From positions 7,121 to 71,120 of the IMG/VR virus record IMGVR_UViG_3300020567_000066: a stretch of DNA of 64,000 nt; one strand, 5' to 3'. The notes beneath the pieces were generated by a model. It was not told the origin of the DNA. It worked only from the letters and a program-made list of their open reading frames with translations, and did no database searches. This document shows, in pieces, positions 2,560 through 26,191 of the stretch (position 1 is the stretch's first letter; every line of letters begins with the position of its first letter). This DNA comes from a virus (lineage: Duplodnaviria > Caudoviricetes). The position numbers and the translations under genes were made by a program.

Positions 2560-4440
2560 TCAATAGATAAGTTTAGGGTTCTTAGAAACCATCCTTGAAA
2601 CCGCTTTATGGTTATCGATAGACCCAACAACCAGACTTTCATCCACAGAGAAATCAACATACTCTAAACTACCATTATTTCTGTTTGCAGTGTTGAATAG
2701 ATTATCAGCAATGTTGTTCAAATCACTATAATCTATCTCAGAGAGCCAAGATTTTACACTCATTTGTCTAGGTATGCTAATTGTAATCTGTTTGATTCTC
2801 TTTCCAACATTTGTATTCAATATGTCATTGATCATATCATAATACGATGAACTAAAATCTTCAGATACAGAACTAGCATGAGGATAGAAAAGTATAGAAA
2901 GATATTCTAAATTACTCTTATCTCCACTTGAATCAAGCTTCCTCAAATTTTCAACAAATGCCTTCATTGATCTTCTATTCACATAACCAAGTTCTAATCT
3001 TGACAACTTAGGAAACAAACCAGACATGAAAAATGTGTTTACATCATTTCTACTGAGCAAAGGAACAATAAATCTAAAGTCACGCAAATTGGTAAGCCTA
3101 TGCCCAACTAGTCTAATAAATCTATCCAAATCTAACTTATAGTCTGGCAAAAAGGTTTCATCATTGTTTAGGGAAGGAATAGAGACACCAGAATCTTCAT
3201 AATCTTTTCTATCAATATAATCATCTATATTTACTTCTCCTGCATATTCATCATAACTTTCATAAGGACTTAAAGAGGGAGTTACAGAAGGATGTGTACG
3301 TAAATCTGTTATTACAGAATAATCAAATCTCTTCAAACGATCCCAAAAAGCATAATCTTCAAAATCAACAATAGGCTCACTAAAAGAAGGATCAAAACGA
3401 CCTCTTTTAACAACCAACCTAAGTGCCTCTATTGGTCTTTTTCCCTTTGCAATCCTATCATCTAATCTCCTAAATAACTCATGAAAAACATGGTTGACTA
3501 GAGCTGAATAGCTGATTCTTCTTCTATAGGGAAGATTTCTAAACATATTGTTAACGTGAAAATTGGCTTCCAATTTTCTCAAGTTATCAAATGGAAAATA
3601 ATCCAACAAATGAAAAACAGTCCTACCATCAGGATTATTATCCATATGATTAACTCTAGAATTGACATCATAGTACAAATGGCTCACACTACTAAAAGTA
3701 TTTTTGCCTTCAGGAAACACAAGAGCCTTTAATGTGCTCTCAACAAATGCCAAAGGTGTTTCCAATCTAGTATCAGGAGAATACAAATTTGATCTTAGAA
3801 CACCAATAGATGAAAGATTGTGGCCAAGATTATAATCATTTTTCGTTATTACACGAGTCTTACCCTTACGAGCTAAAGTAATAATTCCGTTTTCTGGTGG
3901 ATTGTTGTAATATACAATACCATGCCCGAATATATCTCTTGGGAATCTATAACCATCATAATCAACAGCATACGTTAGGAACTTACCAAAACCAAATCTA
4001 TCATAATCATAATTGCTATAAAGACCTTCCAACAAACCACCATAAAAAACAGGATTTGTAAGATAGCGACCTAATCCAACAATATAATTCTTTTTAGACA
4101 AATCAAAATGACTTCTATATGAACCAAGCACATCATCTAATAAATTGCCAATATAATTATTATTTCTAAATAACTGTCCAATAAAGTAATATTCTCTTGG
4201 TGTAAGATTATGTGATTCTGCTCCAGGAAATGATATTGGCATATTATTTGCCTGATACCTGACAAAAGAGGCATATTTTCCAGCATTATTTTCATCAAGA
4301 GCATCTGCCAAAATCATCCTTGGCAATGCATCTTCTGGGTTGCTTCTAGCCTTATCACCTAAAGACTTAGCAACTGTGTTGCTAAGAAAGATGTGAATCA
4401 ATGGTAATTGCAATTGGTCTAAAATATGTCTCCTAGACAT
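2560..4440 (-). CDS. TIGR02996 repeat-companion domain protein with LRR-like C-terminus
   Basis: NPEDALPRMILADALDENNAGKYASFVRYQ fits the TIGR02996 consensus (P.D..PRL..ADWL.E.G....AEFIR.Q); LRR-like segments FPKLSRLEL and SNLEYLSI. Confidence 0.7.
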   Translation of the reverse strand: MSRRHILDQLQLPLIHIFLSNTVAKSLGDKARSNPEDALPRMILADALDENNAGKYASFVRYQANNMPISFPGAESHNLTPREYYFIGQLFRNNNYIGNLLDDVLGSYRSHFDLSKKNYIVGLGRYLTNPVFYGGLLEGLYSNYDYDRFGFGKFLTYAVDYDGYRFPRDIFGHGIVYYNNPPENGIITLARKGKTRVITKNDYNLGHNLSSIGVLRSNLYSPDTRLETPLAFVESTLKALVFPEGKNTFSSVSHLYYDVNSRVNHMDNNPDGRTVFHLLDYFPFDNLRKLEANFHVNNMFRNLPYRRRISYSALVNHVFHELFRRLDDRIAKGKRPIEALRLVVKRGRFDPSFSEPIVDFEDYAFWDRLKRFDYSVITDLRTHPSVTPSLSPYESYDEYAGEVNIDDYIDRKDYEDSGVSIPSLNNDETFLPDYKLDLDRFIRLVGHRLTNLRDFRFIVPLLSRNDVNTFFMSGLFPKLSRLELGYVNRRSMKAFVENLRKLDSSGDKSNLEYLSILFYPHASSVSEDFSSSYYDMINDILNTNVGKRIKQITISIPRQMSVKSWLSEIDYSDLNNIADNLFNTANRNNGSLEYVDFSVDESLVVGSIDNHKAVSRMVSKNPKLIY

Positions 4441-4528
4441 ATCTATCTCCAATAGACAATATTTTCTCAAACAGTGTTAATATTACGCAACTTCAGTATG
4501 GTATCTGTTTCTTCTTTCATACAACACC

Positions 4529-5951: not shown

Positions 5952-6210
5952 AACTCAATCCTCCTCTGTCAACATGGTTAACACACTATACTGTTCATCT
6001 ACTGGATTGTCATATTGACACTTCCTAAACCCAATTAGTTTAAGAATCTCCAGAACATGAGAAGTGCTCTCTCATTTCATCCACTCTAATAGTTACTGGG
6101 GAGAAGAAACATACACACCCTTCTTGGCAAGTTCTACAGAGCATCTAGTACACAATTAAGTCTTTGATTCACCAGAATCATTTCTATAATAAACCTTTCT
6201 ATCACCTAGT

Positions 6211-6239
6211 ATATTACCTCCTAGCGGGTGAGAAGTCAA
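6211..6239 (-). promoter_or_regulatory. sigma70-type promoter
   Basis: Minus strand TTGACT (6239-6234), 17 bp, TAATAT (6216-6211), with an A/T-tract UP-like element upstream. Confidence 0.55.
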
Positions 6240-6293
6240 CAGGAAAATTCCATTTTCATCATTTTTTCATATTTCCCCTCCCCCGCTGAACAG

Positions 6294-6986
6294 CTAGACA
6301 TCGGTGAAAATAACCGTGCTCTCATACTTGTACACCAAGTCAAATAGCTCCCCATAAGCTCCTAAATCAACCCTCTGCCGCCAAAATAGCACAGCCCTAT
6401 GAACCGGCAACTCCGCCCCCACAGCATGACGTACCCTAACCTTGACACACCCTCCCACCCTATCGTAAAGATACCGCTCAATACCTCCCCAAAAGCCAAC
6501 AAAGCCGCTCCCCTCAACCCTCAGTAAACCACCTACCGGCTTCAACCCCACCTCCTCACCGTCCACTACCCTGCCCTCGTCATAATACTCCACCCTGTCC
6601 AATAACTTCCGCCACACCAACACCCTGCCGTCATAAAGCGTATAATCAGGGATAACCTGAAAGCCTAGCCGCGGACTCCTACACTTCGTCAACTCCAGGC
6701 CCAAACAGTATAAGTCGATCTCGTTCCCCCTCCTAAACCGACAAGCTCTCATAACCGGACCAGTATCACTACGTAAATTGACCCCAAACACCGGAAACGA
6801 CCCGAATGCGGTCATGTACCCCTTGCTCCTATCCGAAAACGGCGGGATAGGCGGCCCCTTATACTTGGTCGAATAAACAAACGTCCAAAAACGATCCGGT
6901 ACCGCCCTCTCCAATAAACCCACCACCTCAAACGGCACCCCTCCAGCAACTCCCTCCGCCTCCCTCACCACCAAGAAACTGTTCAT
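6294..6986 (-). CDS. hypothetical protein (GC-rich island)
   Basis: 230-aa ORF, SD GGAGG, about 55% GC with many CG dinucleotides. Confidence 0.65.
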   Translation of the reverse strand: MNSFLVVREAEGVAGGVPFEVVGLLERAVPDRFWTFVYSTKYKGPPIPPFSDRSKGYMTAFGSFPVFGVNLRSDTGPVMRACRFRRGNEIDLYCLGLELTKCRSPRLGFQVIPDYTLYDGRVLVWRKLLDRVEYYDEGRVVDGEEVGLKPVGGLLRVEGSGFVGFWGGIERYLYDRVGGCVKVRVRHAVGAELPVHRAVLFWRQRVDLGAYGELFDLVYKYESTVIFTDV

Positions 6987-7039
6987 ACCACCACCTCCCT
7001 GTCCCAGGGAAAATTACAACTCAGTAAACCCTCCATCCG

Positions 7040-7069
7040 CTTCACCAAATCTTCACAAAATCTTCACAT
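7040..7069. repeat. three CTTCAC direct repeats at 11-bp period, operator-like
   Basis: cttcaccaaat-cttcacaaaat-cttcacat between the tRNA-Ile 3' end and the next gene. Confidence 0.5.
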
Positions 7070-7076
7070 TACCTAC

Positions 7077-7150
7077 TAGTCCGGCCGGGACTCGAACCCA
7101 GAACCTTCGGCTTATAAGGCCGACGCTCTCGCCTGTTGAGCTACCGGACC
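7077..7150 (-). tRNA. tRNA-Ile, anticodon UAU (no encoded CCA)
   Basis: Reverse complement GGTCCGGTAGCTCAACAGGCGAGAGCGTCGGC-CTTATAA-GCCGAAGGTTCTGGGTTCGAGTCCCGGCCGGACTA; full cloverleaf, GTTCGAG T-loop, discriminator A. Confidence 0.92.
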
Positions 7151-7152
7151 GA

Positions 7153-7926
7153 TTATCGTAAACCAAATACGACTTCGTGCACACCAGCCGGAACGGTTCC
7201 CACAACCTCACCGCTCTCATTCCCTATACGGATTGTCGTAGGATACGGGCTGTTGAGCAAAACGTATCTCATTTTACCATTACCAAGCGGTCGCCATTGA
7301 ATAAACTGCATGTAGTCGTTGACAAGGCAGTAAATGTTCCTCGCCTTCACCCATCTAGGTCGCCGCTTTGGGCTGTTCCAAGAGTTCATTGCCAACTCGT
7401 CAAACTCGCCAACCTTTATAATCCCAATGTCGCCGTCGCTTCCAATACGTTCGTAGTCAACAGAATAGGATCGTTGGTAGGTAATCTCCATGTCCGCACC
7501 ATAGGACCCACCCTCAGCATGCTTCACAAAAAATGCGCTGCGAAACTTGCCGCCGTTCTCATTCCATGCGATGAACCCTGTCCCAAATTGGTCAGCAAGC
7601 TTGCATAGCTCTCCATAGCTGAACCCCGGCTCTCCGCTCTTGCTTTCATACATCGCAACGAGCCGCACAAGACCGGTACCGTACAGGCTCAAGGCTCCCC
7701 TGCCAGAAATCAGAATGGTATCCTTACCGGATAGGAAGTGGGCCTTGGGATAATCGATTACCGTCATAGGCACATGCTCAAAGTCATAGCGCGTCCAGTA
7801 ATGCTCGTAGTACAAGCCATTTACCGTTATGGCTCTGTAGTAGCAGTAATAAGGGCCGCTCCCTCCCACGATCACAGCCGGTTTCCAGGTTGGCAGCTTG
7901 TAGTTTACTGTCAGAACGTTACCCAT
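7153..7926 (-). CDS. hypothetical protein (GC-rich island)
   Basis: 257-aa ORF, SD AGGAG; stop lies 2 bp before the tRNA-Ile. Confidence 0.65.
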   Translation of the reverse strand: MGNVLTVNYKLPTWKPAVIVGGSGPYYCYYRAITVNGLYYEHYWTRYDFEHVPMTVIDYPKAHFLSGKDTILISGRGALSLYGTGLVRLVAMYESKSGEPGFSYGELCKLADQFGTGFIAWNENGGKFRSAFFVKHAEGGSYGADMEITYQRSYSVDYERIGSDGDIGIIKVGEFDELAMNSWNSPKRRPRWVKARNIYCLVNDYMQFIQWRPLGNGKMRYVLLNSPYPTTIRIGNESGEVVGTVPAGVHEVVFGLR

Positions 7927-7995
7927 AGCTAGCTCCTAGGCATGCGTTGCTCTTTTACCTTTGGGATTTCTTCCCAAGATGCCTTGCATAAATGG

Positions 7996-8274
7996 TCATC
8001 CTTGGCAATTCTCCACAATAATCTTTACTTCTTCTTCATCCCAATAGTCTTTCCATCTTTGAAGCATTGTTTGAAGTTGTTCTTTAGTAACCTCAAACAA
8101 CACCTCATGTTTCTCCAGGCTAAAGCTCACTATACCAAGATCATCAAAGTAATCATAGAAATACCCATCGTGAAACATCGCTACTCTCATGCCCTGTTCA
8201 CCATCACGATGAACAAGGTAAAAATTACCAGGAGTAAGATTTACCCTATTCATATTCTCTCCTTTCATATTCAA
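7996..8274 (-). CDS. hypothetical protein
   Basis: 92-aa ORF overlapping the upstream gene by 4 bp. Confidence 0.6.
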   Translation of the reverse strand: MNMKGENMNRVNLTPGNFYLVHRDGEQGMRVAMFHDGYFYDYFDDLGIVSFSLEKHEVLFEVTKEQLQTMLQRWKDYWDEEEVKIIVENCQG

Positions 8275-8909
8275 ATCCTGTAATGCTTTTTAATCTCTTC
8301 AATCTTCTTCTCATGATAGGCAATCAATTCTTCTCCAGTGGGAGGCTCCCAAACATGTTCTCCCTCTTCCACCTTGATTCTACGACCTTCTGGTTCATCA
8401 GAGTAGACAAAGTCTAGAATCCTATTCATTTGCTGTATCTTTGCTTCATATTTTTCCTTCAGCTTCCTGTTTTCTTCCTCTAGTTGACGCATCCCAAGTT
8501 CAACAGTATTTTTGGCAACATAACTGTCAGGATGCCCAACATAAACTTCGTACCATTCAATCCTTGCCCCTTCAGGCAATTCAGTAGCACCTTCTGGTAA
8601 ACGTGGACCAATGTACTGACCAACAAAGATTCTGTCAAGATATTCTGCTTTTACAGATACACGATTGCACTCAACATCATAATCCAAAATCTTGCTGTAC
8701 AATTTAGCTGTGTTTTCATGTCCAACACAACTAACTACCTCAAAATCAAGCCCAATCCATTTAATGTAGTTGGCAGGATCATTGATCTTTTTAACCAGAA
8801 GGACAGCATCACCAGGAATCATACTGAGTGAGAAAGCATTGGAAATATAAACCTTGGAACGGACAACCTTCAGTGGAATGCCAAGGCAGTACTCTTGTGA
8901 GTTACTCAT
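8271..8909 (-). CDS. acrIII-1: AcrIII-1 family (DUF1874/STIV B116-like) cA4 ring nuclease anti-CRISPR with C-terminal coiled-coil extension
   Basis: KVYISNAFSLSMI...SCVGHENT...CNRVSVKAEYLDRIFVGQYIGPRLPEG reproduces the recalled SIRV1 gp29 pattern (KVYLANAFSINM, SIGH, KNRVEIKLE, QRLEEG); SD GGAGG before ATG 8909. Confidence 0.85.
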   Translation of the reverse strand: MSNSQEYCLGIPLKVVRSKVYISNAFSLSMIPGDAVLLVKKINDPANYIKWIGLDFEVVSCVGHENTAKLYSKILDYDVECNRVSVKAEYLDRIFVGQYIGPRLPEGATELPEGARIEWYEVYVGHPDSYVAKNTVELGMRQLEEENRKLKEKYEAKIQQMNRILDFVYSDEPEGRRIKVEEGEHVWEPPTGEELIAYHEKKIEEIKKHYRI

Positions 8910-8946
8910 AGTGACATCCTCCCTTAGGTAAACAAAAGAACCAAAC

Positions 8947-9321
8947 TCAGTTATCCACACAGTTTGAACTATTGCCACAATCTTGCATAACAATCTTCAG
9001 ATAACTGGCGAGAGAGAAGTCAATCACACAATTACAGAGAAACCTAAAAACATTTGGAATATTACCTGTTTTGTAAATCTCTCTTACTTTTGAATCAGAA
9101 GTAATGTAAAAGAGTCTATAAATAATTGGATTGCTTCCCTCCTTTACAAGCATCAAATCCTTCCCAAGCACACTAACCTTGTAGACCAGCCTATTAATAT
9201 CCTTTTCCTCACAGTAATACACAGATAGCAAACCATCAAGATTGGTAGCAATGATGGAAATCAGCCTCTCTTCTTCAGCATCAAACTTGACAAGATTCAG
9301 AGTGTCATTCTGTGGCATCAT
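8947..9321 (-). CDS. hypothetical protein, likely paralog of the 1861-2532 domains
   Basis: VKFDAEEERLISII ~ ISFTTKEKYIISSF; IYRLFY ~ CYRLLF. Confidence 0.55.
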   Translation of the reverse strand: MMPQNDTLNLVKFDAEEERLISIIATNLDGLLSVYYCEEKDINRLVYKVSVLGKDLMLVKEGSNPIIYRLFYITSDSKVREIYKTGNIPNVFRFLCNCVIDFSLASYLKIVMQDCGNSSNCVDN

Positions 9322-9905: not shown

Positions 9906-10490
9906 TCAAACCATTCCCTTGATTATAGAGTCAATGTAAAAGACTCCCCTTTCATTATCTTTTGGTGAAGGAAAAAGACACATAAATGCAGACTCATTCT
10001 TACAAAGATCATAAGACTTTAGCTTTCCAAAAGTAGAGCAAAATGCATTGATTCCTGTCTCTATTGGCAAATAGATGTCATAAATATCCCCCTTTATGAT
10101 TACATCATCCAATTGTGTTGGCACAATAAACCCTATAAATGGCCTAAAGTAATCATTTAGGTCAATTGTTGTCTTATAGATGAAGACAAGTTGCTTCACA
10201 AAGACAATCTCCCCATACTCCCTCTGATCATCAGAAGTCAGTACAGCAAATGGTAGACGAATCTTGTTTGTATTCTGCAAATATTCCATAAGAGTCATAT
10301 TCTCTTTATACTCTTTATCCTGTCTCATGTAGATTTCCTTGAAAAGGATCATAGTGTTATCTGGTCTAAACTCAACAGGGAAGACACAAAGAGAGACAGA
10401 ATTACCTTTGATTGGCAATCCCTTTCTGTTGAAGTAATCAACAATACCAACCTCTTTCTCAACACTATCCAATACCTTGTGTTTATTCAT
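9906..10490 (-). CDS. hypothetical protein
   Basis: 194-aa ORF coupled to the primase-helicase by a 4-bp overlap. Confidence 0.65.
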   Translation of the reverse strand: MNKHKVLDSVEKEVGIVDYFNRKGLPIKGNSVSLCVFPVEFRPDNTMILFKEIYMRQDKEYKENMTLMEYLQNTNKIRLPFAVLTSDDQREYGEIVFVKQLVFIYKTTIDLNDYFRPFIGFIVPTQLDDVIIKGDIYDIYLPIETGINAFCSTFGKLKSYDLCKNESAFMCLFPSPKDNERGVFYIDSIIKGMV

Positions 10491-12196
10491 ATTTCTTCTA
10501 CCTCCTCAGATTCATGAATAAACTGTTCTATCTGCTCATCAGAAATAACATTGTCTGATTCTACAAGTTCTTCACCTATAGAATCAGTAATGTACATATC
10601 ATAAGTGTCAAATAAGAATATCTTATTGTCTGAAGGATAATTTGTTTTTATTACAGAAAGATAAGATTGATTCTCTTCATTCTTGTCTACTCTCAAAACT
10701 ACTCTTGATATACCTGTAAAACCAATACTTCCTAATCCCTGTTGAACTTGATTACCATAACTACTGCCATTCCCATTACCATTCCCATTCCCCTTAGTCT
10801 TTCTCAAGTGTCTAACAACAATTGTGGTCATACCCCTACTTCTACACAAACCAACAAAGAATCCAAGTATCTTTCTGATTTCAACATCTGAATACATTAT
10901 ATTAGAGTCTCTCAAGTAAGATGAGATTGGATCAATAATTACAACACGTACATCATGTCTTTCAATCACTCCTTTTATCTTGTTTATATCATTAGGAAAT
11001 ACTGGAAAGTCATTGTAATACAAAAACTTATTAGGATCAGCTTTCATCTGCTTGATTCTGGTCTTTATGGAGGAGACTGTATCCTCATGAGAGATGATCA
11101 ATACTTTTCCATTATCATACCCAGTAACACCAAGACAATTGTCTAGAGAACATATAAACTTATTTCCAGAAACAAAAGCATAAGACAAGGCTAAGGAAAT
11201 GAAACTCTTTCCACAACCAGGATTTCCTTCAATTAATATCAACTCATTCCTTGGTATCATATTTTCTACAAGCCATATATTACCATCTAGTTCCTTGAAA
11301 TCAGAAATACTCAATACTTCATCTTTGTATAACCAACTGAAGAAGGATTCTAGTGAAACAGAAATATTATTGTCATAAATATGAACAAGAAGATCATCAA
11401 TCTTTTCCTTTTGTATTCCAGTTTTCTTAACCTTCTCCCAGTCAAAGTAATAAATATTCTTTATCTCTGTATAATTCACCAATTCTTTGAGTTCTGTTAA
11501 CACATCAACATCAGAGTCGTAGACTAGAAAGACAATATCTTCTGGTTTGAATAAATTACTCTTATAGCAACTTATTACATCCTTTTCAAGAGTCAATTTA
11601 GATTGACTACCAATAACATTACCAATAATATTCATTCTATCAAACAAAATAGATGTAACAATAGACTTTAAATATCCTTCAATGAAATAAAAAACATTAC
11701 TACCATCACTTCTTACTAATGATGGTAAAGCTGGAGAAAGATTATAATACCTTCCATTTGGACTATCTATTAGTCTCAACTGATAATGATTTGAACCATC
11801 TTGTGAATTAATGGGAATGATAAGACAGTAAGACTGTTGATTATTCTTATCAAATATTCCTGGTTTTATACCATACTTCTTAGCTTCACTCTCTGTTATT
11901 CCCCTTCTAGATAACTCATTCAAGTGTTGAGAGTGAAAGACATAAGCTAATGTTAATGTACCTTTATCATAATTCTTTTCCTTATTCATCCATTTCCTCC
12001 TATCAGGAAAACTAATATCTTCTCCTACCAAATGAGAAATCTTCTCCTCAATCACCTCCTTGTATTCTAATACTTCTGACATAGAACACCCAGCAAAACA
12101 TTTACATTTGACAATCTTCCCATCAGAAACACCAACAGACAAAGAAGGATGAACATCATGGTGAGCAGGACATCTAATGGTGTAATACCTGATCAT
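10487..12196 (-). CDS. primase-helicase: Zn-binding domain, TOPRIM and RepA/AAA_25-type helicase
   Basis: CPAHHDVHPSLSV..CKCFAGC; IEGYLKS and VYDSD; Walker A EGNPGCGKS; Walker B VVIIDPIS; VRHLRK. Confidence 0.85.
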   Translation of the reverse strand: MIRYYTIRCPAHHDVHPSLSVGVSDGKIVKCKCFAGCSMSEVLEYKEVIEEKISHLVGEDISFPDRRKWMNKEKNYDKGTLTLAYVFHSQHLNELSRRGITESEAKKYGIKPGIFDKNNQQSYCLIIPINSQDGSNHYQLRLIDSPNGRYYNLSPALPSLVRSDGSNVFYFIEGYLKSIVTSILFDRMNIIGNVIGSQSKLTLEKDVISCYKSNLFKPEDIVFLVYDSDVDVLTELKELVNYTEIKNIYYFDWEKVKKTGIQKEKIDDLLVHIYDNNISVSLESFFSWLYKDEVLSISDFKELDGNIWLVENMIPRNELILIEGNPGCGKSFISLALSYAFVSGNKFICSLDNCLGVTGYDNGKVLIISHEDTVSSIKTRIKQMKADPNKFLYYNDFPVFPNDINKIKGVIERHDVRVVIIDPISSYLRDSNIMYSDVEIRKILGFFVGLCRSRGMTTIVVRHLRKTKGNGNGNGNGSSYGNQVQQGLGSIGFTGISRVVLRVDKNEENQSYLSVIKTNYPSDNKIFLFDTYDMYITDSIGEELVESDNVISDEQIEQFIHESEEVEEI

Positions 12197-12291
12197 ATAT
12201 ACTCACCACCAGGTTAGGCAGTAATGCTGCCATATTAACCCCTTTCCCAGCAAAAAGGATAACAGAAAAATGGAAATTACCTCTTCCAATT

Positions 12292-12325
12292 CCCCATTCC
12301 CAATTCCCCCATCACCCAATAACCC
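12292..12325 (-). other. G-quadruplex motif on the minus strand
   Basis: Five C-tracts of 3 or more on the plus strand, i.e. GGG-TTATT-GGG-TGAT-GGGGG-AATT-GGG-AAT-GGGG on the minus strand. Confidence 0.55.
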
Positions 12326-12340
12326 AGGATACCCATAATT

Positions 12341-12420
12341 TTTGATTATTTCGCTTATAATCGATTTTCCTACCAAAAGTATATCATTACCCTCCCCAAC
12401 CCAAAATAATCGATTATACG
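12341..12420. repeat. left paired-arm element TATAATCGATT-41 bp-AATCGATTATA
   Basis: Arms at 12356-12366 and 12408-12418, preceded by TTTGATTATTT; second copy at 14321-14403. Confidence 0.8.
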
Positions 12421-12507
12421 CAATCCTATGAGGAAATAAAGGCATTCTCATGGGATTGAGGAAGGAAGAGTGCACCATTAACCATTCGCCATTCGCTGCT
12501 TTCCACC

Positions 12508-12556
12508 GCTCGCTGCTCGCTGCTCACCGCTCACTGCTCACTGCTCGCTGCTCGCC
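12508..12556. repeat. tandem heptamer GCTC(G/A)C(T/C), seven copies
   Basis: gctcgct gctcgct gctcacc gctcact gctcact gctcgct gctcgcc. Confidence 0.85.
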
Positions 12557-12659
12557 ATCAACCATCTCAATTCCCCATTTCACCAGAAAAATAGAAATCT
12601 TGTTAGATTTTACCCCTTTCAGGGGTTAATATAGGGTGAGAGAGAAGGGAAGTAGAAGG

Positions 12660-14280
12660 TAAGAGAGTAATTAATGGGTTAATTAACATAGAATTAATTT
12701 CACTGAATTAATTACATTGAATTAATTCACCTAATTAATCATACACTATTAAGTGTGTTAATAACTTAATTGTATGTGATTAAGTCAATGTAATTAAATG
12801 AAATATTATTCACCATAATTAAAGTCACTGTAATTAATGTAGTGTAAATGTAATGTAATATTATCATATGGTGTTAATACACTAATATACAGTGTAATGT
12901 AATTGAATTGTTAATGTATGGGAAAAAGTATATGCTTATTCTATACTAGTGTATGATATAGTTCATTTAATTGGGTTAATTACATTGACTTTAATTCATA
13001 TGATTTAATTTCACCTAATGAAGTTTTAATTCAATGTATATGAGATATATTCTCTAATCTAGTGAAATATACTCTTAATAGACTTATTCTATTTGGTGAA
13101 TAATATTCACATTAATTTGCACTAACATTAAGAGTATTCTAATATATTATTTATACTGTACACTTTAAGTCTATGTACTATTAACATAGTGTTAATATTG
13201 TGTTAATATTATGTGAGGAAAAGAATATATTCTCTTTACATTAGGTGAATTAATCTAATGTAATTGAAAAGAAATATATTTCTTCTATTCAATTAAATTC
13301 AATTGATATTAATTCATATGATTCTAATGTCAATGTAATTAATTGCACCATAATATGGTGTTAACACACTATATATTCTAGTGTAATGTAATTAAACTAA
13401 TTTATGGTGAGAGAAGATATACTCTTAATTACATTGACTTAATTTATGTGATTTAATTCACCTAGTTTAATTCACCTAATTGAATAGAATTAACACTATT
13501 CTTTCACCCACAATATTAACCCAATTAATAGAAGATATATTGCACTCTAATTAAGTGTTCTATTCAATGTAATTAATTCAATTAGATGAATATCATATAC
13601 ATTAGGTGATTAATACACTTAATAGTCTATTCACATTAATTTCATGTAATTAATTCACCAACTATATGATTCACCTAATAGAGAGTATATTACACTTACA
13701 TTAGATGTATTAATTCACCATAATTAAGTGTATTAATCATATGAAATAAAATAATGTTATACTCCTAAAGTATATGTTAACACTCAATTAAATAATCTAG
13801 TGTATTACATTAAGTGTATGAGAGAAGAATATGATTAACACTATTACTACTCACCTAGTGTTAATAGACTAATGTCTTCTCACATTAATCTCTTCTCATT
13901 AATCTTCTCCCATTAATTTCACCTAATAGAGTATATTAGATTAATCTAGTGTATAGACTATACTAAGTGTATTAGTCTATTAACCCCTAATTAGGGTGAT
14001 AATATTCACCTAATGAATTAACACCTAGTGTAATTAAGGTGCATTAACACTTAGTGTAATTAACACTTAATTACAGTGAAATTAATAGAGTATTAAACTA
14101 AGTGTATTAATCTACTAGGTGAATTAATCTACTAGAGTATATAATACACTTAATTATGGTGCAATTTAATTACATTGAAGAAGATATATACTCTAAAGTA
14201 TATGAAAGAACATATACTCTTAATCATATGAAAAGAATATATATTCCTAAAGTATATGAAAAGTATATGAATAATACAAC
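12660..14280. repeat. AT-rich mosaic of dispersed short repeats and palindromes
   Basis: TTCACCTAAT 6 forward + 1 reverse; TAATTACATTGA 4 forward + 3 reverse; no CG seen; sampled 60-bp lines 15-22% GC. Confidence 0.8.
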
Positions 14281-14320
14281 ATTCCTTGGAAACATTAGAT
14301 TCAGTTGTTACCCTCTATTT

Positions 14321-14403
14321 TTTGATTATTTGCTCTATAATCGATTTTGTGGTCTTGGGAGTATCTTTCATCATTTTGGATAGAGATAATCGATTATAAG
14401 CGA
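14321..14403. repeat. right paired-arm element TATAATCGATT-41 bp-AATCGATTATA
   Basis: Arms at 14336-14346 and 14388-14398, same spacing as the left element, offset 1980 bp. Confidence 0.8.
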
Positions 14404-14461
14404 TTTTAGAAGGAAATAAGGGTGTTATTGGGTGATGAGTGGTGAAGGGTGAGTGGTTATT

Positions 14462-14489
14462 GGGGAGAAGGGTGAGTGGGGAATTGGGG
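14462..14489 (+). other. G-quadruplex motif on the plus strand
   Basis: GGGG-AGAA-GGG-TGAGT-GGGG-AATT-GGGG. Confidence 0.55.
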
Positions 14490-14643
14490 AGTGGTGAGTG
14501 GGCAGTAGTGATTAGCTGTTAATATGCCCTTCTTCTCCTCTTGGTCATAAAAATCTTCCAAAATTCTGTTATCCAATCTTTTCCCCAGGTGTTTAATAAT
14601 GCGACCATAGAATAGTTATGGCAATTACTCACTCGAAAGGAGA

Positions 14644-15240
14644 ATGATCATGCCTTCTGTTTACAAAATCCCAAGGAAGAACAATAATCAAAGTTCTTCT
14701 ACTACTCAGGAGAATAATTCTCCTAAGCAATCTAATGATCAATCTAAGAGAAAGTTTTATCCAAAGAAATATCAGAGTAATAGACAAGAGAATAATAGTG
14801 TCAGAAACTCTATTGTTCTTCTAGGAACATATAAAGTATCTTCTGATGGTAATGTTTATATCTCAAAGAATGGGAAAGGATATATAGTTCTTCTCATTTA
14901 TGGGAAGTATAATAATAGAATAAACATTAGTTATTTCTTTAATCAGAAACAATTAGATAAGATTTTCTATAACATCAGGAATAATTGGAAAATAAATCTT
15001 GATGAAGTAGAAGGTAGTAATGATTTAGAGAAACTTAAGAATTATGTGAAAAGTAAAATGTCTATTGATATTAGTAGTAATAGTGAAGAAGAAATACTCT
15101 TAAGATCTTTATCTTCTCTTCTTACTATTCCAAGATATTGTGATATAATGATCAAGGAAGATAATAAAGGAAAATTCTTATACTTTTGTCATATCAAGGA
15201 AAAGAAATCTTTTTCCTTCAATAAGGGTAATAAGAAGTAA
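14644..15240 (+). CDS. hypothetical protein, paralog of 15260-15757; possibly ssDNA-binding (DUF669-like)
   Basis: N/Q/S/K-rich N-terminus, then DGNVYISKNGKGYIVLLIYGKYN; SD AAAGGAG. Confidence 0.45.
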   Translation: MIMPSVYKIPRKNNNQSSSTTQENNSPKQSNDQSKRKFYPKKYQSNRQENNSVRNSIVLLGTYKVSSDGNVYISKNGKGYIVLLIYGKYNNRINISYFFNQKQLDKIFYNIRNNWKINLDEVEGSNDLEKLKNYVKSKMSIDISSNSEEEILLRSLSSLLTIPRYCDIMIKEDNKGKFLYFCHIKEKKSFSFNKGNKK

Positions 15241-15259
15241 TTTATTAGGAGAATAAACA

Positions 15260-15757
15260 ATGGAAAATGAAAAATACAATAAAAAGAATTGGTTACATAG
15301 AGAAAGATTAGATGAAGAAGATACTCTTTATGCTGGAAAAGCAAAAATATATTGTGATGGAAACATATATAAGTCTAATCATGGAGTAAAGTATTTAAGA
15401 CTATCAATTGAAGGGAATTACAATAAGAAGTATAAGATAAACTATTATTTCCATAATTCTTCTTCTCAAGTGAAGAATATACTAGACAATGCAAGTAAAC
15501 TCTGGTTTAAAGATGTTGACAATAAAAGCAATTTCAATGTCAATGATCTAGTTGGTATAGTAAAGAGAGAAAATAATGATTTAGATATTTCTGATCCAAA
15601 GAGTGATAAGATTGAAGATATTGCTAATTGTTTAGCAGATGTTCTTTCTGTAATTCTTTCTAAACCTAAAGTAGCTCAAATTATTATTACAAGGAAACAA
15701 GATATTTATAAAGTCTATTTCTGTAAGGTGAGGAAAGATAGGAAAAGAAATAAGTAG
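15260..15757 (+). CDS. hypothetical protein, paralog of 14644-15240
   Basis: DGNIYKSNHGVKYLRLSIEGNYN...VYFC aligns by eye with the upstream gene. Confidence 0.55.
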   Translation: MENEKYNKKNWLHRERLDEEDTLYAGKAKIYCDGNIYKSNHGVKYLRLSIEGNYNKKYKINYYFHNSSSQVKNILDNASKLWFKDVDNKSNFNVNDLVGIVKRENNDLDISDPKSDKIEDIANCLADVLSVILSKPKVAQIIITRKQDIYKVYFCKVRKDRKRNK

Positions 15758-15769
15758 TGGAGGTTAGAT

Positions 15770-16762
15770 ATGAATCCAATACTTGTTAAAGATGTTTGTA
15801 ATGTTATCAATGTTCCTCTTCCTTCTAGTTTTTGGAAGGAACAGATTTTACCATTTGTTCCTGATATTTCTATTGATCTCTCTACTGTGATTGAGAAGGA
15901 AAATAATCATTACAGTGAAGTGTCTGAAGTGTTGAATTTCCTTCTAGAGACATTTGACATTAGTATAAACTACATTCATATCATCTACTCAATCTACTCT
16001 TCTATGTGTTCTATTGCCTATCTTCTGAAGGATGATAATATTATCAAGATAGCAGCCAATCAATTCAACTTTATTCACAAGTATTATGAGAAGAGTGAGT
16101 CACTGTATGTTGACATATTACATGGATTGGACTTCATTCAAGATGGATTCTCTAATGAGAAGTTTGAGACTGTTGTTACTCCACCTCACATGAGCAAATT
16201 GTTTAGTAAAATGCTCTATGTGTTTGTGAATATATTTTTCCTAGTAAACTATAGACATTCACAGTATGATTATTACTTCCTGAGTAACTTCAGAGACAGT
16301 ATCAAGGAATTGGGTAATCTAAGTTTTGATGTCTTGGGTAAAGAGATTATTGAGTCTTATAAGAATGCTGATTCTCTGGATGAAACATTGTCTGTAGTTG
16401 AAGAGGTAAAGAAGATTTTCAACCTTCTTCTAAATGATAATGTCACTTTCCTAATCAAAAAGAAGGGTGGTGACTCTGAGGTTATCAACAATGTTGTTCT
16501 GAAAATCAATCCTTTTGTGGAGATTGAAAAGATAAAGCTATTCAGGAACAACCTTACAAAGATGAGACCCTTGAGAGATATGTGCAACCATCTGGTAATC
16601 TATTATCTCTCCTGTGTCAATTGCTTGAAAAAGCCTCAAAATGTTCTTAAATCTGTTGAGGAACTGCATAATTTTGTTATCCAGGACATGGGCAAAGTGG
16701 TTAATGAGGTGATGTCCCTCAATAGGATATTCAAGTCCAAGCTGGTTGATATGCTTGTATAG
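15770..16762 (+). CDS. hypothetical helical protein
   Basis: 330-aa ORF, SD GGAGG. Confidence 0.7.
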   Translation: MNPILVKDVCNVINVPLPSSFWKEQILPFVPDISIDLSTVIEKENNHYSEVSEVLNFLLETFDISINYIHIIYSIYSSMCSIAYLLKDDNIIKIAANQFNFIHKYYEKSESLYVDILHGLDFIQDGFSNEKFETVVTPPHMSKLFSKMLYVFVNIFFLVNYRHSQYDYYFLSNFRDSIKELGNLSFDVLGKEIIESYKNADSLDETLSVVEEVKKIFNLLLNDNVTFLIKKKGGDSEVINNVVLKINPFVEIEKIKLFRNNLTKMRPLRDMCNHLVIYYLSCVNCLKKPQNVLKSVEELHNFVIQDMGKVVNEVMSLNRIFKSKLVDMLV

Positions 16763-16777
16763 TTGGAGGTATTAGAT

Positions 16778-17596
16778 ATGGACATTTTACTTGAGAAGTT
16801 TTGTGAGAAGAAGTATCCAATCCCTTCAGATTTTGTTAAGGGATGGTTTGAACTTGTTGCACAGGTTGATTTATTTTATGATCTGTGCAATTTGAAAGAT
16901 GATGAAATTAAAGAGTTTCAAGATGAAAATAGTGTATTGGAGTTCTTATCAAAAGCTTATCTCTCCATCAACTCCATATGCTTCTCTATTCTTTCTGCTA
17001 ATGATCTTTATGAAGAATTGTCCTATATTTCTTCCAACCTCTGTGAGGATGAAAATGATATTGTCAGATTGTTTTTTGACCTGAAGAAATTGTATGATAA
17101 AATGGTAGATAATTATGAAAGAAATTATCGTTATCCTCACAACTACTGGTTTACCTTTGAACCTAATTTTCATAGGTTTATGATGGAGAAGATTGAAGAA
17201 TTGTTTAGTGTTATTCTTAGTTCTGGTGATTTGAAATCTGGTAAACTCTATGATTCTTATAGAGAGTATGTGAAAGAATTACTTGACAGAAATATAGCTG
17301 AAATATTTCGTATGAGAACAAATCTTGATTATGATGTGATAATTTATCGTAAAGATTATCAGGACAACATAGATTTTGTCTACACAAAGTCTGATGATAA
17401 TGAAAGCATTCATAAGCCAGACATTTATGTTGGTGTTTTGGCTAAGTTCAAATATCCAATTGTGGGAAGGAATACAGTTTTGCACAAGTGTATGATGTGC
17501 TCTGAGTATTACTTTAAGAAAGCTGTTGGCCATCATTATGCTTTGTTGACTGGTCAACCTAATAACTTCCTTTTTGTCAATCCTGAGGCACCATAA
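16778..17596 (+). CDS. hypothetical helical protein
   Basis: SD GGAGGT before ATG 16778. Confidence 0.7.
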   Translation: MDILLEKFCEKKYPIPSDFVKGWFELVAQVDLFYDLCNLKDDEIKEFQDENSVLEFLSKAYLSINSICFSILSANDLYEELSYISSNLCEDENDIVRLFFDLKKLYDKMVDNYERNYRYPHNYWFTFEPNFHRFMMEKIEELFSVILSSGDLKSGKLYDSYREYVKELLDRNIAEIFRMRTNLDYDVIIYRKDYQDNIDFVYTKSDDNESIHKPDIYVGVLAKFKYPIVGRNTVLHKCMMCSEYYFKKAVGHHYALLTGQPNNFLFVNPEAP

Positions 17597-17607
17597 CGGA
17601 GGATTTT

Positions 17608-18237
17608 ATGCAACAAGGTAGTCAAGAGTGGCTTGAGTTCAGGATGGGCAGAATAGGCTCATCTGACATTCCTTCTATACTCAATCTTTACCCCTTTTGT
17701 TCCCGCTCTATGCTTTTATGTCAGAAAGCAGGATTGGTAAAGCCAAAGAAGAAGAACAAGTATATGATTCAGGGTAGTGCTTTTGAATGTATTGCAAGAC
17801 AAAAGGTATCCAAGATACTTGGAGAGTATGAGCCATATGTGTTTACTGGACACAAAGACTATAGTTTTCTCATGGCTTCTGTTGATGGTGTTTCTAAGGA
17901 TAAGAGTAGTTTCATTGAAATAAAATGTCCCTCTGAATCATCCCACCTAATGTTTAAGGAATCAGTGCCAATCTACTATCGTCTTCAGATGTCACACATA
18001 ATGTTTGTTAGTGGAATAAAGAAGGGTTATTTTGTCTCTCTGTTTCAAGATGATGTTTACATCAAAGAGTTTGGTGAAGAATTATCCTCTTTCTTCCCAG
18101 ACATTCTTTCTTCATCTACGGACTTTTACAATGAGCTTGTGGAACTAAAAGACTTTATGAGCAAAAATGAGAGTAAATTGAAAGAGATTATTGAAATCAT
18201 CAAAAGCAAAGAGCACAAGGAGCTTGTTGATGTATAA
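17608..18237 (+). CDS. YqaJ-like (lambda exonuclease family) recombination nuclease
   Basis: QGSQEWLEFRMGRIGSSD, ASVDG, IEIKCP, YRLQMSHIM. Confidence 0.9.
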   Translation: MQQGSQEWLEFRMGRIGSSDIPSILNLYPFCSRSMLLCQKAGLVKPKKKNKYMIQGSAFECIARQKVSKILGEYEPYVFTGHKDYSFLMASVDGVSKDKSSFIEIKCPSESSHLMFKESVPIYYRLQMSHIMFVSGIKKGYFVSLFQDDVYIKEFGEELSSFFPDILSSSTDFYNELVELKDFMSKNESKLKEIIEIIKSKEHKELVDV

Positions 18238-21135: not shown

Positions 21136-21171
21136 GTTCATGTGTTTTAATTGATAGACAAGGAGAAAAAT

Positions 21172-23829
21172 ATGAAAAAAGTATGTCTTCATGGTCACAG
21201 CATCTATTCCAAGGATGGAATTGCATATCCTGATGAGATATTCAAAATTATGGATATTGCTGCTATTACTGATCATGGAACTCTTGGGTCACATTATTAT
21301 GTTCCAGAAGATGGAAAGAAAATAATTCGTGGCATTGAGATGTACATCGATATGCCAGTTGAATATCAACCAATCTTTAAGAAGGCAAGAGAAAAGAGAG
21401 GAAAAGCACATCATCTCACCATACTTGCTGATGGTGAGCAGGGATGGTTATCTCTTGTAAGGCTTAGTGCAGAATGCTGGAATGGCTTTTACCATTTTCC
21501 AAGAGTTACTTTTGAAAAGTTTATGGATATGGATTTACCAGGAATTATTGTATTGTCTGGGTGTCCTGCTAGTGTAATTTACAAGCTTTGGGAATCAAAT
21601 AATCTTAAGCTTGCAGTTGATGTCTTTTTGAGATTGAAGGAGAAGTTTAGAGGAAGATTTTATGCTGAGGTTATGCCAAGCATGGATATACAGTATGTTG
21701 AATTTATTGCCGATGTTGCTAAGAATTACAATGTCCAAGTGGTTATGACTCAGGATGCCCATTACACTAGTGATTTATTCAATGCTTGGGTTGTCTACAA
21801 AGCATTAGATGAAGAGGCTAAATATGATTTGTCTTATGAAATGAGCATACCAGATAATCTATTGAGCTATTACAGAAATAGCATATCTCTTGCTGAGGAC
21901 ATTAATGAATATACTCTAAAGTTTTCTTACAAGGATTATGATGTCAATAACGATATTTATTATCTTCGTAAGATAGCTATTGATCGTGCAGATAAGTATA
22001 ATTTTGATATTGATTATTCAATTTTGGATAAGGAGATTGAAGTAATAAAAGACATTGGCATGTCCTGGTATATGACTATCATTTATGACATATTCCAAAT
22101 AGCCAACAATCTTTCTGGTGGCCATGTTACTTTACGTGGTAGTGCCTCGTCTTCCTATCTCCTTTATCTCCTTGGAATGACAAGATTCAATCCTTTGAAG
22201 CATGGTTTGATGTTTGAGAGGTTTATGTCAAGAGATAGGAAAGAATTACCAGATGTTGATATTGATGTTCCTGCATCTAAAAGGGATGAGATTATAAAGG
22301 AAATTGAGTCAATGGGAAACTTTGTTGTAATACACACATCAACAGAAGTAAATTATGAAGAGAGAAGTGCAAAGAATCGTTATGATAAGTTCATAAAAAG
22401 TGTTGGTGGCAATAAGGTTTATGATAACAGTGTTATTGACATAATGAAGGGAAGAATGATGAGTTATGGAACACATGCATCTGGATTAACATTAATTCCA
22501 AAGTCTTTGAGCCAATATGTTCCAACCAGAATTGATAATAATGACAATGTTTGCATAGAGTATTCTTATGAAAACTGTGGTTTTCTGAAGGTTGATATAC
22601 TTGGACAAGATATTATGGATGTTATAAAAGATTGTTCTAGTGGTTGTAGTGTTGAAATGTCTCTACCATTTGATCAGAGTGTGTTTTATGACACAGTAGA
22701 GGATTGTACTGGAGTATTTCAGCTTACTGGAAAAATGAGAAGATATTGGCGTTGTTATGCTTTGAAGAAGAAGCCAGACTATTTTGATGTTGAGGACTAC
22801 TCTTATGTTTCGGCAGTTTATCGACCTGCCATTCTAGAGTCTGGATATTTTGAAAAGATATTTGAGTTTGACAATAGCTTTATTCCAGAATCTGTTAGAA
22901 AACTATTGAATAATGGCAGCATTGTCTATCAGGAAGATTTGCTAAGATTGTTGGCAAACTATATTCCATTGGAAAACTCATACAGTGTAATGAAGAAATT
23001 GGCTAAGAAAGACATTGATGGTGCTAATAAGATTCTCGATAGTCTCAATGCTAAGATTCCAACATTTGTATTAAACTTCATTCAATCTTTTGGCTCATAT
23101 GGATTCAATAAGAGTCACTCAGTTTCTTATGCTTATAGAACCTATCAAAGTGCTTGGTGCAGAAAGTATGTTTGGTGGAAGTATTACCCTGCAATTATTG
23201 ATCGTGAGAATGGAATTGATAGAGCTTGGTATGTGATGAATTTCTGTCGTAGACATGGAAATGTTTTGCCACCAGATTTGAAGTCTTTGAAAACTAGAGT
23301 TGATCAGAATGGCAATCTTGTCCTTGGTGCTAGTCTGATAAAGGGGTTTGGTGTTGCAGAACCAATGTCTGATGATATGAGTGTTGACAAATATGTTGCA
23401 AGGCTTAATAAAAAGAAAAGAGATATATTGTTTGAGAGCACAATTTATTATTATTTGTCTGGTGATTTAGATAAGTTTAATGTAAAGATTGCATCATCAT
23501 TTTTATCCTGCCCAATAGTCTCAAGAGATGAAATGATTCTCAACAATTCTTTATTCAAATCAATTTGTGACAGTATACTGTATAATGTAAGCAGTGTGAA
23601 AGAGTACATTTTATGGTGTTCAGAACCAGATGAGTATGGAAAGTGTCTTTGCACTGATGGTACCGATGTTATATTCTTATATAATGTCAAACCTGGTCTT
23701 GGAAAGTATAAAATCAATATTACACCACTGAAGAGCAAAGGAATCTTGCTAACTAATCAGAGAATTGTGGGGGACAACATATGGCAAAAACGACAAGGAA
23801 GTACAAATCAAGCAATATACGAAACATAG
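21172..23829 (+). CDS. dnaE: DNA polymerase III alpha subunit (PHP plus family C polymerase)
   Basis: LHGHSIYS..DG, AITDHG, RGSASSS, FERFMSRDRKELPDVDID, HASG, LKVDILG, GVFQ, IVYQE, YGFNKSHS. Confidence 0.93.
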   Translation: MKKVCLHGHSIYSKDGIAYPDEIFKIMDIAAITDHGTLGSHYYVPEDGKKIIRGIEMYIDMPVEYQPIFKKAREKRGKAHHLTILADGEQGWLSLVRLSAECWNGFYHFPRVTFEKFMDMDLPGIIVLSGCPASVIYKLWESNNLKLAVDVFLRLKEKFRGRFYAEVMPSMDIQYVEFIADVAKNYNVQVVMTQDAHYTSDLFNAWVVYKALDEEAKYDLSYEMSIPDNLLSYYRNSISLAEDINEYTLKFSYKDYDVNNDIYYLRKIAIDRADKYNFDIDYSILDKEIEVIKDIGMSWYMTIIYDIFQIANNLSGGHVTLRGSASSSYLLYLLGMTRFNPLKHGLMFERFMSRDRKELPDVDIDVPASKRDEIIKEIESMGNFVVIHTSTEVNYEERSAKNRYDKFIKSVGGNKVYDNSVIDIMKGRMMSYGTHASGLTLIPKSLSQYVPTRIDNNDNVCIEYSYENCGFLKVDILGQDIMDVIKDCSSGCSVEMSLPFDQSVFYDTVEDCTGVFQLTGKMRRYWRCYALKKKPDYFDVEDYSYVSAVYRPAILESGYFEKIFEFDNSFIPESVRKLLNNGSIVYQEDLLRLLANYIPLENSYSVMKKLAKKDIDGANKILDSLNAKIPTFVLNFIQSFGSYGFNKSHSVSYAYRTYQSAWCRKYVWWKYYPAIIDRENGIDRAWYVMNFCRRHGNVLPPDLKSLKTRVDQNGNLVLGASLIKGFGVAEPMSDDMSVDKYVARLNKKKRDILFESTIYYYLSGDLDKFNVKIASSFLSCPIVSRDEMILNNSLFKSICDSILYNVSSVKEYILWCSEPDEYGKCLCTDGTDVIFLYNVKPGLGKYKINITPLKSKGILLTNQRIVGDNIWQKRQGSTNQAIYET

Positions 23830-25801: not shown

Positions 25802-26003
25802 AATACTTAGAAGCTATAAGTTCTCAGAGGAATCACTGAAAAAATTGAAGAAATGTTCAGAACTATTAACTTGGAAAATGAGAAGAACAATATACTTGAA
25901 TCAAGCTATTGAAATTGCTATTGATAAACTGTATGAATGGATAAGAAAGGAAATTTTACTTGATCCAAGTGTTGATAAACCCAATTTAGATTTTGAGAGA
26001 TAG
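25791..26003 (+). CDS. ribbon-helix-helix-like protein
   Basis: RSYKFSEESLKKLKKC...LNQAIEIAIDKL. Confidence 0.5.
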   Translation: MSDKILRSYKFSEESLKKLKKCSELLTWKMRRTIYLNQAIEIAIDKLYEWIRKEILLDPSVDKPNLDFER

Positions 26004-26191
26004 ATACTGGATATGTCCTGTTTGCAAGACAGAGCATGATAGAGATGTGAATGCATCTAAAAATTTATTAAAGTATGGGATTGCTCACCTTACGAGCAGT
26101 AGGGCAGGAACTGTCCAAACTAAAGCCTGTGGAGAGGCTAAAAGCCTCGTAGAAGCAGGAAGCCTCTCAATTTATTGAGAGGTAAGTTCAC
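25993..26191 (+). mobile_element. tnpB: IS200/IS605-family TnpB C-terminal remnant with right end (omegaRNA 3' region)
   Basis: RDRYWICPVCKTEHDRDVNASKNLL (Zn ribbon plus RuvC-III), tail RAGTVQTKACGE, hairpin CCTCTCAAT/ATTGAGAGG (26163-26182), terminal GTTCAC. Confidence 0.85.

Follow-up and report, generated by a model that had tools for sequence, protein, structure and literature searches.

The founding member of the AAA_25 family is RepA of RSF1010, and the IncQ oriV consists of iterons, an AT-rich stretch and hairpin priming sites. The primase/helicases of phage P4 and of the staphylococcal SaPIs act on iterons beside their own genes. Iteron origins (RSF1010 oriV, P4 ori/crr, SaPI ori and lambda ori) share clustered short sites, meltable AT-rich DNA, hairpins and an adjoining primase/helicase gene. 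In E. coli oriC and P1 oriR the 4-bp palindrome GATC is concentrated many-fold, and the centromeres parC of R1, tubC and the omega heptads of pSM19035 are head-to-tail arrays of a short unit in fixed register. Repeat Region 3 of phage T5, a putative injection stop signal, spans 1.2 kb of untranslated DNA in which direct repeats, inverted repeats and palindromes are nested (bioRxiv 10.1101/866236). It is located within the long terminal repeat, at the end that is injected first, has DnaA boxes that are paired in conserved inverted repeats, and is distant from the T5 origins.

The DNA analyzed here, hereafter the window, is a 64-kb stretch covering bases 7121–71120 of a single 71,120-bp virus record, and coordinates are those of the window. 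The virus is a tailed phage with a genome of 34.8% GC, whose genes are mostly ORFans. The structural and packaging genes that were recognized encode the large terminase, a Mu-like portal, a cement protein and Mu gp36. Also encoded are an ECF-type sigma factor, ribonucleotide reductase, ThyX, a dCTP-deaminase-like protein and two DNA methyltransferases, one of the D12 class and one of the N6_N4 class. A Pfam search of ∼71 ORFs gave no integrase, Rep initiator, partition gene or single-subunit RNA polymerase. The contig ends show no mutual similarity and no terminal repeat, and the contig may be incomplete. At 19.8–21.4 kb of the 71-kb contig lies the sole stretch of the window longer than 400 bp that is ORF-free, defined as without an 80-codon open frame. 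It is an AT-rich mosaic of repeated words. Rfam at the gathering threshold gave only two tRNAs of the phage, Ile-UAU and Arg-UCU, both outside it. On balance, we consider it probable that bidirectional replication of the phage starts here, with the mosaic as the origin core and its words forming a field of sites for protein binding. Its features are as follows.

12660–14280, no strand assigned: AT-rich word mosaic, 23% GC, with 72 TTAA centers and 93 TTAAT anchors (both strands counted); the words are TTAATTACATTGA, TTAATTCACCTAAT, TAATACACTTAAT and GTGTTAATA, plus purine-TATA-pyrimidine palindromes of the AGAGTATAT type
12694–12752, no strand assigned: TTAA array, five centers at 13–14 bp spacing
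12766–12797, no strand assigned: TTAA array, three centers at 14 bp spacing
12976–13008, no strand assigned: TTAA array, three centers at 14–15 bp spacing
13425–13470, no strand assigned: TTAA array, four centers spaced exactly 14 bp
13885–13916, no strand assigned: TTAA array, three centers spaced exactly 14 bp, with TAATCTCTTCTCAT units
13329–13438, no strand assigned: large imperfect palindrome of ∼110 bp, with arms TCAATGTAATTAA and TTAATTACATTGA and an inner palindrome of the GGTGTTAACACC type
14176–14268, plus strand: 26-bp direct tandem repeat, 3.4 copies (TGAAAAGAATATATACTCTAAAGTATA), at the right edge of the mosaic
12203–12478, 12450–12629 and 14156–14383: small ORFs built of repeats and treated as non-coding

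Like the iteron origins, the mosaic combines clustered short sites, meltable AT-rich DNA and hairpins with an adjoining primase/helicase gene, and the phage helicase belongs to the AAA_25 family, as does RSF1010 RepA. However, the mosaic is five to ten times longer, and it is composed of 14-bp TTAA units in both orientations, whereas the iteron origins contain 17–22-bp direct iterons. No Rep, O or alpha-type domain and no DnaA boxes were found, and the likeness to these origins is one of sequence. Analogous to the GATC clusters of oriC and oriR, a 4-bp palindrome is concentrated many-fold in what is here a candidate origin, and the two DNA methyltransferases of the phage provide a parallel to clusters of methylation sites at origins. 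In contrast to GATC, which is not avoided in E. coli, TTAA is strongly avoided in the rest of the phage genome.

The closest described look-alike in form is T5 Repeat Region 3, which is likewise untranslated, longer than 1 kb and composed of nested repeats and palindromes. The head-to-tail arrays of a short unit in fixed register also recall the partition centromeres; the 14-bp unit corresponds to two heptads, and ATTCACC and TTTCACT bear a putative, loose resemblance to the omega heptad WATCACW. The mosaic might accordingly be read as another kind of DNA-handling signal, be it a T5-like injection-stop or terminal repeat region, a packaging site or a partition centromere: the T5 region is a repeat nest without translation, and parC and tubC are regular short-repeat arrays resembling the 14-bp arrays. 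We consider this scarcely likely. Unlike the T5 region, the mosaic is internal, is free of DnaA boxes, is located at a switch in strand bias and has replication genes on either side, in a contig without a terminal repeat. Unlike the partition centromeres, its arrays are interrupted and of mixed orientation, and no gene for a partition NTPase or adaptor was found in the genome, where Pfam gave no match to ParA, ParM, TubZ, ParB or ParR among the ∼71 ORFs. The terminase genes are 15 kb from the mosaic, and a signal for DNA handling would leave the switch in strand bias unexplained.

The vocabulary of the mosaic is small and strictly local. The word TAATTACATTGA is present seven times (12709+, 12785−, 12977+, 13330−, 13426+, 13564− and 14167+), and its orientation alternates strictly along the mosaic. 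Seven copies of TTCACCTAAT and two of TTCACCATAAT were also found, with GTGAATAATATTCAC at position 13096; all four have zero copies elsewhere in the 64-kb window. An earlier note on this DNA had reported seven copies of each of two words and a palindrome at 13096, and these observations are borne out. According to the same note, word counts matching those of a shuffled sequence would speak against its description. The counts far exceed this level: the commonest 12-mer has seven copies in the mosaic and at most two in 200 dinucleotide-preserving shuffles, and 87 positions lie under 12-mers with at least three copies, compared with 0 in the shuffles. Overall, the density of the vocabulary is 100–600 times that of the other 69.5 kb of the genome.

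Other parts of that description needed qualification. The duplications described at ∼450–490 bp are real as offsets of 450–500 bp, but only in the form of short matches of 20–45 nt (12863/13350/13850, 12961/13424/13912 and 13222/13682). All quarters of the mosaic align pairwise in either orientation (z 4.5–14.7), which indicates a word mosaic and not clean duplicates. A clean higher-order repeat of ∼470 bp was rejected because the offsets are inconsistent, and the mosaic has no global dyad symmetry, only local palindromes. The region had been described as not tandem; indeed no one tandem repeat makes it up, although it contains short tandem arrays whose periods are 11, 14, 17 and 26 bp. The statement that long A-tracts are missing holds, with one AAAAA in the mosaic. 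CG is likewise absent (zero copies), as had been noted, but this is not specific to the region since the CpG observed/expected ratio (O/E) is 0.03–0.3 along nearly the entire genome. The only periodicity signals are a broad one at ∼5 bp and one at 14 bp; a helical periodicity of 10–11 bp is absent from the mosaic, 3-base periodicity was not seen, and the small ORFs at 12203–12478 and 14156–14383 have no Pfam match.

A region in which every part aligns with every other in both orientations, and which contains short tandem arrays of several periods, could be a functionless repeat expansion that arose through slippage, local duplication and inversion in a non-coding gap. We regard this as improbable. 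The genome is compact and the mosaic is its sole long gap, and both the exact 14-bp register and the symmetric flanks point to constraint.

The anchor that unifies the mosaic is TTAA, with 72 copies in ∼1.6–1.66 kb. The spacing between successive copies is exactly 14 bp in 14 of the 71 intervals, compared with 1.7 expected at random and a maximum of 9 in 2,000 trials, and this register yields five arrays of three to five units. The unit of the lattice is TTAA followed by ∼10 nt of the form TTNCAYNTGA. Each AATTAATT core thus has CAY/RTG half-sites on its flanks and forms a quasi-palindrome of the type read by dimeric DNA-binding proteins. Other palindromes in the mosaic include ATTAAT (24 copies) and TAATTA (21 copies); together with the 72 TTAA these contradict the suggestion, made in the earlier note, of a zone free of restriction sites. 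A second class of element comprises the purine-TATA-pyrimidine palindromes, for example AGAATATATTCT, which turn into the 26-bp repeat at the right edge.

The large palindrome at 13329–13438 has predicted cruciform or hairpin potential. Local palindromes of ∼90–110 bp result in strongly negative fold z-scores on both strands; the values, −4 to −7.7, are alike for the two, as DNA palindromes predict. Negative fold scores of this kind could also reflect one or more non-coding RNAs, regulatory or primer, transcribed inward from the units that flank the mosaic. Since these units are direct repeats, any internal promoter would fire into the mosaic from one side, which favors such transcripts. A structured RNA had indeed been among the functions proposed in the earlier note, but we find it unsupported, and transcripts of either kind appear very improbable: Rfam gave nothing in 12100–14750 even at E ≤ 1, the fold excess is the same on both strands, and no intrinsic terminators were found in the locus. 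In addition, the words occur in both orientations, which is better suited to sites on double-stranded DNA than to RNA. The duplex itself is weak here, and of the 25 least stable 50-bp windows of the 64 kb, 13 are inside the mosaic. The DnaA box TTWTNCACA does not occur in the mosaic; the window contains 12 copies, compared with 12.1 expected by chance.

The mosaic is bracketed by two 105-bp direct-repeat units, exactly 1980 bp apart, and by GC-rich heptad repeats.

12286–12335, minus strand: outer heptad repeats, G-rich on the minus strand; leader of the leftward operon and an inverted copy of 14470–14501
12339–12445, plus strand: left flanking unit, with box A, TTTTTGATTATTT..TATAATCGATTTT, and box B 49 bp on, ATAATCGATTATA..AGGAAATAAAGG
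12482–12565, minus strand: 6.9 tandem copies of the GC-rich heptad GCTCGCT, the minus strand being the G-rich one; separates the left unit from the mosaic
14319–14425, plus strand: right flanking unit, repeating the left unit directly at a distance of 1980 bp and with identical 49-bp geometry
14430–14517, plus strand: G-rich heptad repeats, the right clamp; leader of the rightward operon

Each flanking unit contains the palindrome core ATAATCGATT(AT) twice, 49 bp apart, and its boxes were found nowhere else in the genome. The 12-bp palindrome ATAATCGATTAT carries some of the few CpGs of the locus. Box A provides a top-strand TATAAT and box B a bottom-strand TATAAT, and a conserved CCYTTATTTCCT is positioned at −35 distance from the latter. 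The GC-rich heptad blocks are the most stable DNA at the locus, with the mosaic between them; the block at 12482–12565 is the most stable of all and forms the left clamp. The proposal of a protein-coating or melting platform, also made in the earlier note, fits the quasi-palindromic TTAA sites, the low stability, the GC clamps and the position at the strand switch.

This arrangement is open to a reading without replication, in which the mosaic is a transcription-control or nucleoprotein platform and provides operators for a phage regulator, or for a host nucleoid protein or silencer, that times both early operons, comparable with lambda OL and OR bracketing the immunity region. In particular, the unique flanking units 1980 bp apart have paired ATAATCGATTAT palindromes and TATAAT in both directions and are located upstream of both G-rich leaders, the quasi-palindromic sites suit dimeric regulators, and TTAA is avoided elsewhere, as if stray sites were harmful. 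As a substitute for an origin, however, we consider such a platform possible but unlikely. No HTH or RHH regulator was recognized beside the locus, sigma-70-like promoters are not enriched in it (19, versus 22.9 in shuffles), and the ∼70 sites are far above the number in any known operator region. The switch in strand bias, which is independent of gene orientation, would also be left unexplained. The two readings are not mutually exclusive.

The genes on either side of the locus belong to two divergent replication operons.

10487–12196, minus strand: primase-helicase of 569 aa, with an N-terminal zinc finger and an AAA_25/RepA-type ATPase; heads the leftward operon
14644–15757, plus strand: two ORFan paralogs (198 and 165 aa) sharing 29% identity, at the head of the rightward replication/recombination operon
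17608–18237, plus strand: YqaJ/RecE-like recombination exonuclease
21151–23829, plus strand: DnaE-like DNA polymerase (PHP and Pol III alpha)

The start of the primase-helicase gene is 464 bp to the left of the mosaic and that of the rightward operon 364 bp to the right; the latter operon also contains the D12 methylase together with the YqaJ exonuclease and the DnaE-type polymerase. Searches of Pfam, PHROGs and NCBIfam found no origin-binding family of the Rep, O or DnaA-like type among the neighbors. Neither of the first two proteins of the rightward operon has a relative among 1.84 billion representative proteins. Further ORFans of the neighborhood are located at 9906–10490 and 15770–17596. 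In the work on the neighboring proteins, an AF2 model had a low pLDDT of 51, the only leads from the ESM Atlas, to OB-fold and DUF669 proteins, were weak, and sequence searches of the PDB returned no matches.

To what extent the base composition of the two arms reports on replication depends on separating the bias of the DNA strand from that of the coding strand. The minimum of the cumulative GC skew falls at 12620 and that of the keto excess at 12597, but overall GC skew mostly tracks gene orientation in this phage. Four-fold degenerate sites were therefore used to separate the two kinds of bias. At these sites the G/C bias follows the coding strand and the T/A bias follows the DNA strand, so that only the T/A signal counts as independent evidence for an origin. 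The top-strand value of (T−A)/(T+A) is −0.22 in the left arm (A-rich) and +0.24 in the right arm (T-rich). The seven minus-strand genes of the right arm give +0.30, all of them positive (p = 1.3e-4), compared with +0.23 for their plus-strand neighbors; sharing the sign irrespective of orientation, they indicate that the bias follows the DNA strand and not transcription. Accumulated over 7,502 sites, the T/A bias traces a V whose lowest point, at 12167, is the last four-fold site before the mosaic, and the curve climbs on through both blocks of minus-strand genes. The left arm has only two genes on the opposite (plus) strand, and these disagree with each other; the arms are also unequal, ∼20 kb versus ∼51 kb. 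An orientation-independent bias that switches sign is the pattern expected from replication-associated mutation around a bidirectional origin. Leading strands made by DnaE-type replicases are generally T-rich.

The distribution of TTAA in the genome is paradoxical. The genome total is 278, of which 72 copies are in the mosaic, equivalent to 44 per kb compared with 3.0 per kb outside. A quarter of the copies are thus found in 2.3% of the DNA, an enrichment of ∼15-fold, and no other 500-bp bin of the genome holds five or more. In coding sequences, TTAA is the most avoided of the 256 tetramers. The 181 copies there compare with ∼444 expected from a synonymous-codon shuffle (O/E 0.41, z about −19) and with 519 from a codon-order shuffle (z −18). 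The one-step neighbors TCAA, TTGA, CAAT and ATTG are among the most over-represented tetramers. Such a pattern in the genes is classically left by selection against a short palindrome, restriction avoidance being an example. Duplex melting was rejected as its cause, since TATA is less stable and yet scarcely avoided, with an O/E of 0.83.

With TTAA purged from the genes, a 15-fold enrichment in non-coding DNA is difficult to attribute to drift. Under gene-like pressures, the functionless expansion considered above should have depleted TTAA rather than enriched it 15-fold. The data suggest that the tetramer itself is recognized by some factor and that it became concentrated in the mosaic through selection, not drift. 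A bolder proposal, which we think decidedly doubtful, is that TTAA itself is the working unit of a new kind of origin or nucleoprotein organizer. The TTAA-recognizing factor, possibly a restriction or nicking enzyme of the host, a methylase of the phage acting with a reader protein, or a lattice protein of the minor groove, would do such damage at stray sites that TTAA had to be purged from the genes. The phage would deliberately gather this factor on a 72-site lattice in 14-bp register, where it would fire or license bidirectional replication.

Several features favor the mosaic as the core of the origin. It is positioned between divergent replication operons and is the only gap longer than 400 bp in the window, and the T/A bias flips sign there irrespective of gene orientation. 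Its repeated sites are above chance and confined to it, with a high TTAA density and a 14-bp register. The low duplex stability with GC clamps on both sides and the potential for hairpins or cruciforms also favor an origin. Other observations count against it. No initiator or origin-binding protein was recognized among the ORFan neighbors, DnaA boxes are absent from the mosaic, the two plus-strand genes of the left arm disagree, and the arms of ∼20 and ∼51 kb are without a terminal repeat. Moreover, with 1.6 kb and ∼70 sites the mosaic is several times the size of characterized phage and plasmid origins, so part of it may serve another role.

If the mosaic is the core of the origin, a dimeric DNA-binding protein, of phage or host, may coat the TTAA lattice. 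The protein coat, supercoiling and the local palindromes would together open the duplex, the adjacent RepA-type primase-helicase would load onto the opened DNA, and forks would leave in both directions. The two 105-bp units, with their ATAATCGATTAT pairs and TATAAT, may act as the operator-promoters of both divergent replication operons, in which case the flanks would couple gene expression to the origin.

Relatives of the locus were sought in several collections. A blastn search of the locus against phage and plasmid collections gave nothing, and scans of IMG/VR and GTDB genomes with peptide patterns from the helicase and the polymerase gave no close relative. In a profile scan of metagenome contigs, helicase relatives had at most 31% identity, and none of them showed a gap or TTAA cluster like that of the phage. 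Searching viral and genome contigs for exact words and word pairs returned only chance matches. Public assemblies contain ten near-identical variants of the helicase, the longest contig reaching 56 kb; the variants P0008 and P0013 are encoded on Logan contigs of 43 kb and 56 kb.

Replication origins have been mapped in very few phages and in almost none from uncultivated lineages. The origin is called here by purely computational means and, through the skew at four-fold sites, independently of gene orientation. The build of the element is unusual, a 1.6-kb TTAA lattice in 14-bp register between two units that resemble promoter-operators, and the TTAA paradox is relevant to how phages reconcile avoiding restriction with keeping the cis-acting sites that they need. 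Should TTAA prove to be the working unit, restriction-site avoidance and origin function would be linked in one element. If the origin reading is confirmed, the mosaic would provide a portable origin for engineering phages of this little-known lineage.

The mosaic, a 1.6-kb AT-rich, gene-free region of TTAA words (window 12660-14280) and a candidate replication origin, is bracketed by two direct-repeat units of 105 bp, with GC-rich tandem repeats of heptads acting as clamps beside them. The features are as follows:

12339-12445, left direct-repeat unit
14319-14425, right direct-repeat unit, at a spacing of exactly 1980 bp
12286-12335, heptad tandem repeat
12482-12565, heptad tandem repeat
14430-14517, heptad tandem repeat
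14644-15240 and 15260-15757, pair of paralogous genes in tandem (29% identity) at the start of the rightward operon

Each unit carries two ATAATCGATT(AT) palindromes spaced 49 bp apart, and the TATAAT hexamers in the units lie on opposite strands, face-to-face. The units are in direct orientation despite the divergence of the operons downstream of them. The heptads are of the types CCAATTC, GCTCGCT and GGTGAGT, and through these repeats the transcribed strand is G-rich in both divergent leaders, where R-loops or G-rich structures could be favored. For the tandem paralogues, no relatives were found among 1.84 billion representative proteins, and comparison with the ESM Atlas gave weak leads only, pointing to OB-fold proteins and to the phage SSB-like DUF669 proteins.

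Domain matches were obtained for four other genes, the first located in coordinates of the whole virus record:

1467-1988 (genome), minus, phage-encoded ECF-type sigma-70 family factor (TIGR02937, 43.5 bits; cut-off 42.9)
8271-8993, minus, protein of 240 aa whose residues 49-135 match the STIV_B116-like domain of the AcrIII-1 ring nuclease family (E 2.6e-7)
25993-26178, plus, 61-aa ORF matching Cas12f/TnpB (E 4.7e-8)
2560-4470, minus, protein of 636 aa matching the TIGR02996 domain below threshold (E 2.1e-5)

The 240-aa protein is longer than its STIV_B116-like domain. The match of the 61-aa ORF is limited to the C-terminal zinc-ribbon (TNB) domain, and the ORF is a TnpB remnant. The TIGR02996 match, at 24.2 bits, lies below the cut-off of 29.05 and gives no more than a weak hint as to the host lineage.

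Across the genome (the window and the whole record), CpG is extremely depleted, with an observed/expected ratio (O/E) of 0.03-0.3 in almost all 2-kb bins, and 17 6-bp palindromes, the majority containing CG, are wholly missing. The exceptions to the depletion are one GC-rich island and the final 1.1 kb of the contig. The island (6001-8000) has ∼50% GC and a near-normal CpG O/E of 0.76. It looks like a recent acquisition from a GC-richer source and contains:

6294-6986, minus, ORFan gene
7077-7150, tRNA-Ile(UAU)
7153-7926, minus, ORFan gene

The final ∼660 bp of the contig (63337-64000) are 44% GC and richer in CpG; their sole ORF encodes 90 aa, and no overlap with the contig start was found. 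Within all coding sequences, TTAA is the most avoided of the 256 tetranucleotides (O/E 0.41; z −19 relative to synonymous-codon shuffles), and TCAA, TTGA, CAAT and ATTG, each one step from TTAA, are over-represented. Together, the avoidance of TTAA and the excess of its neighbors in genes form a restriction-avoidance-like footprint.
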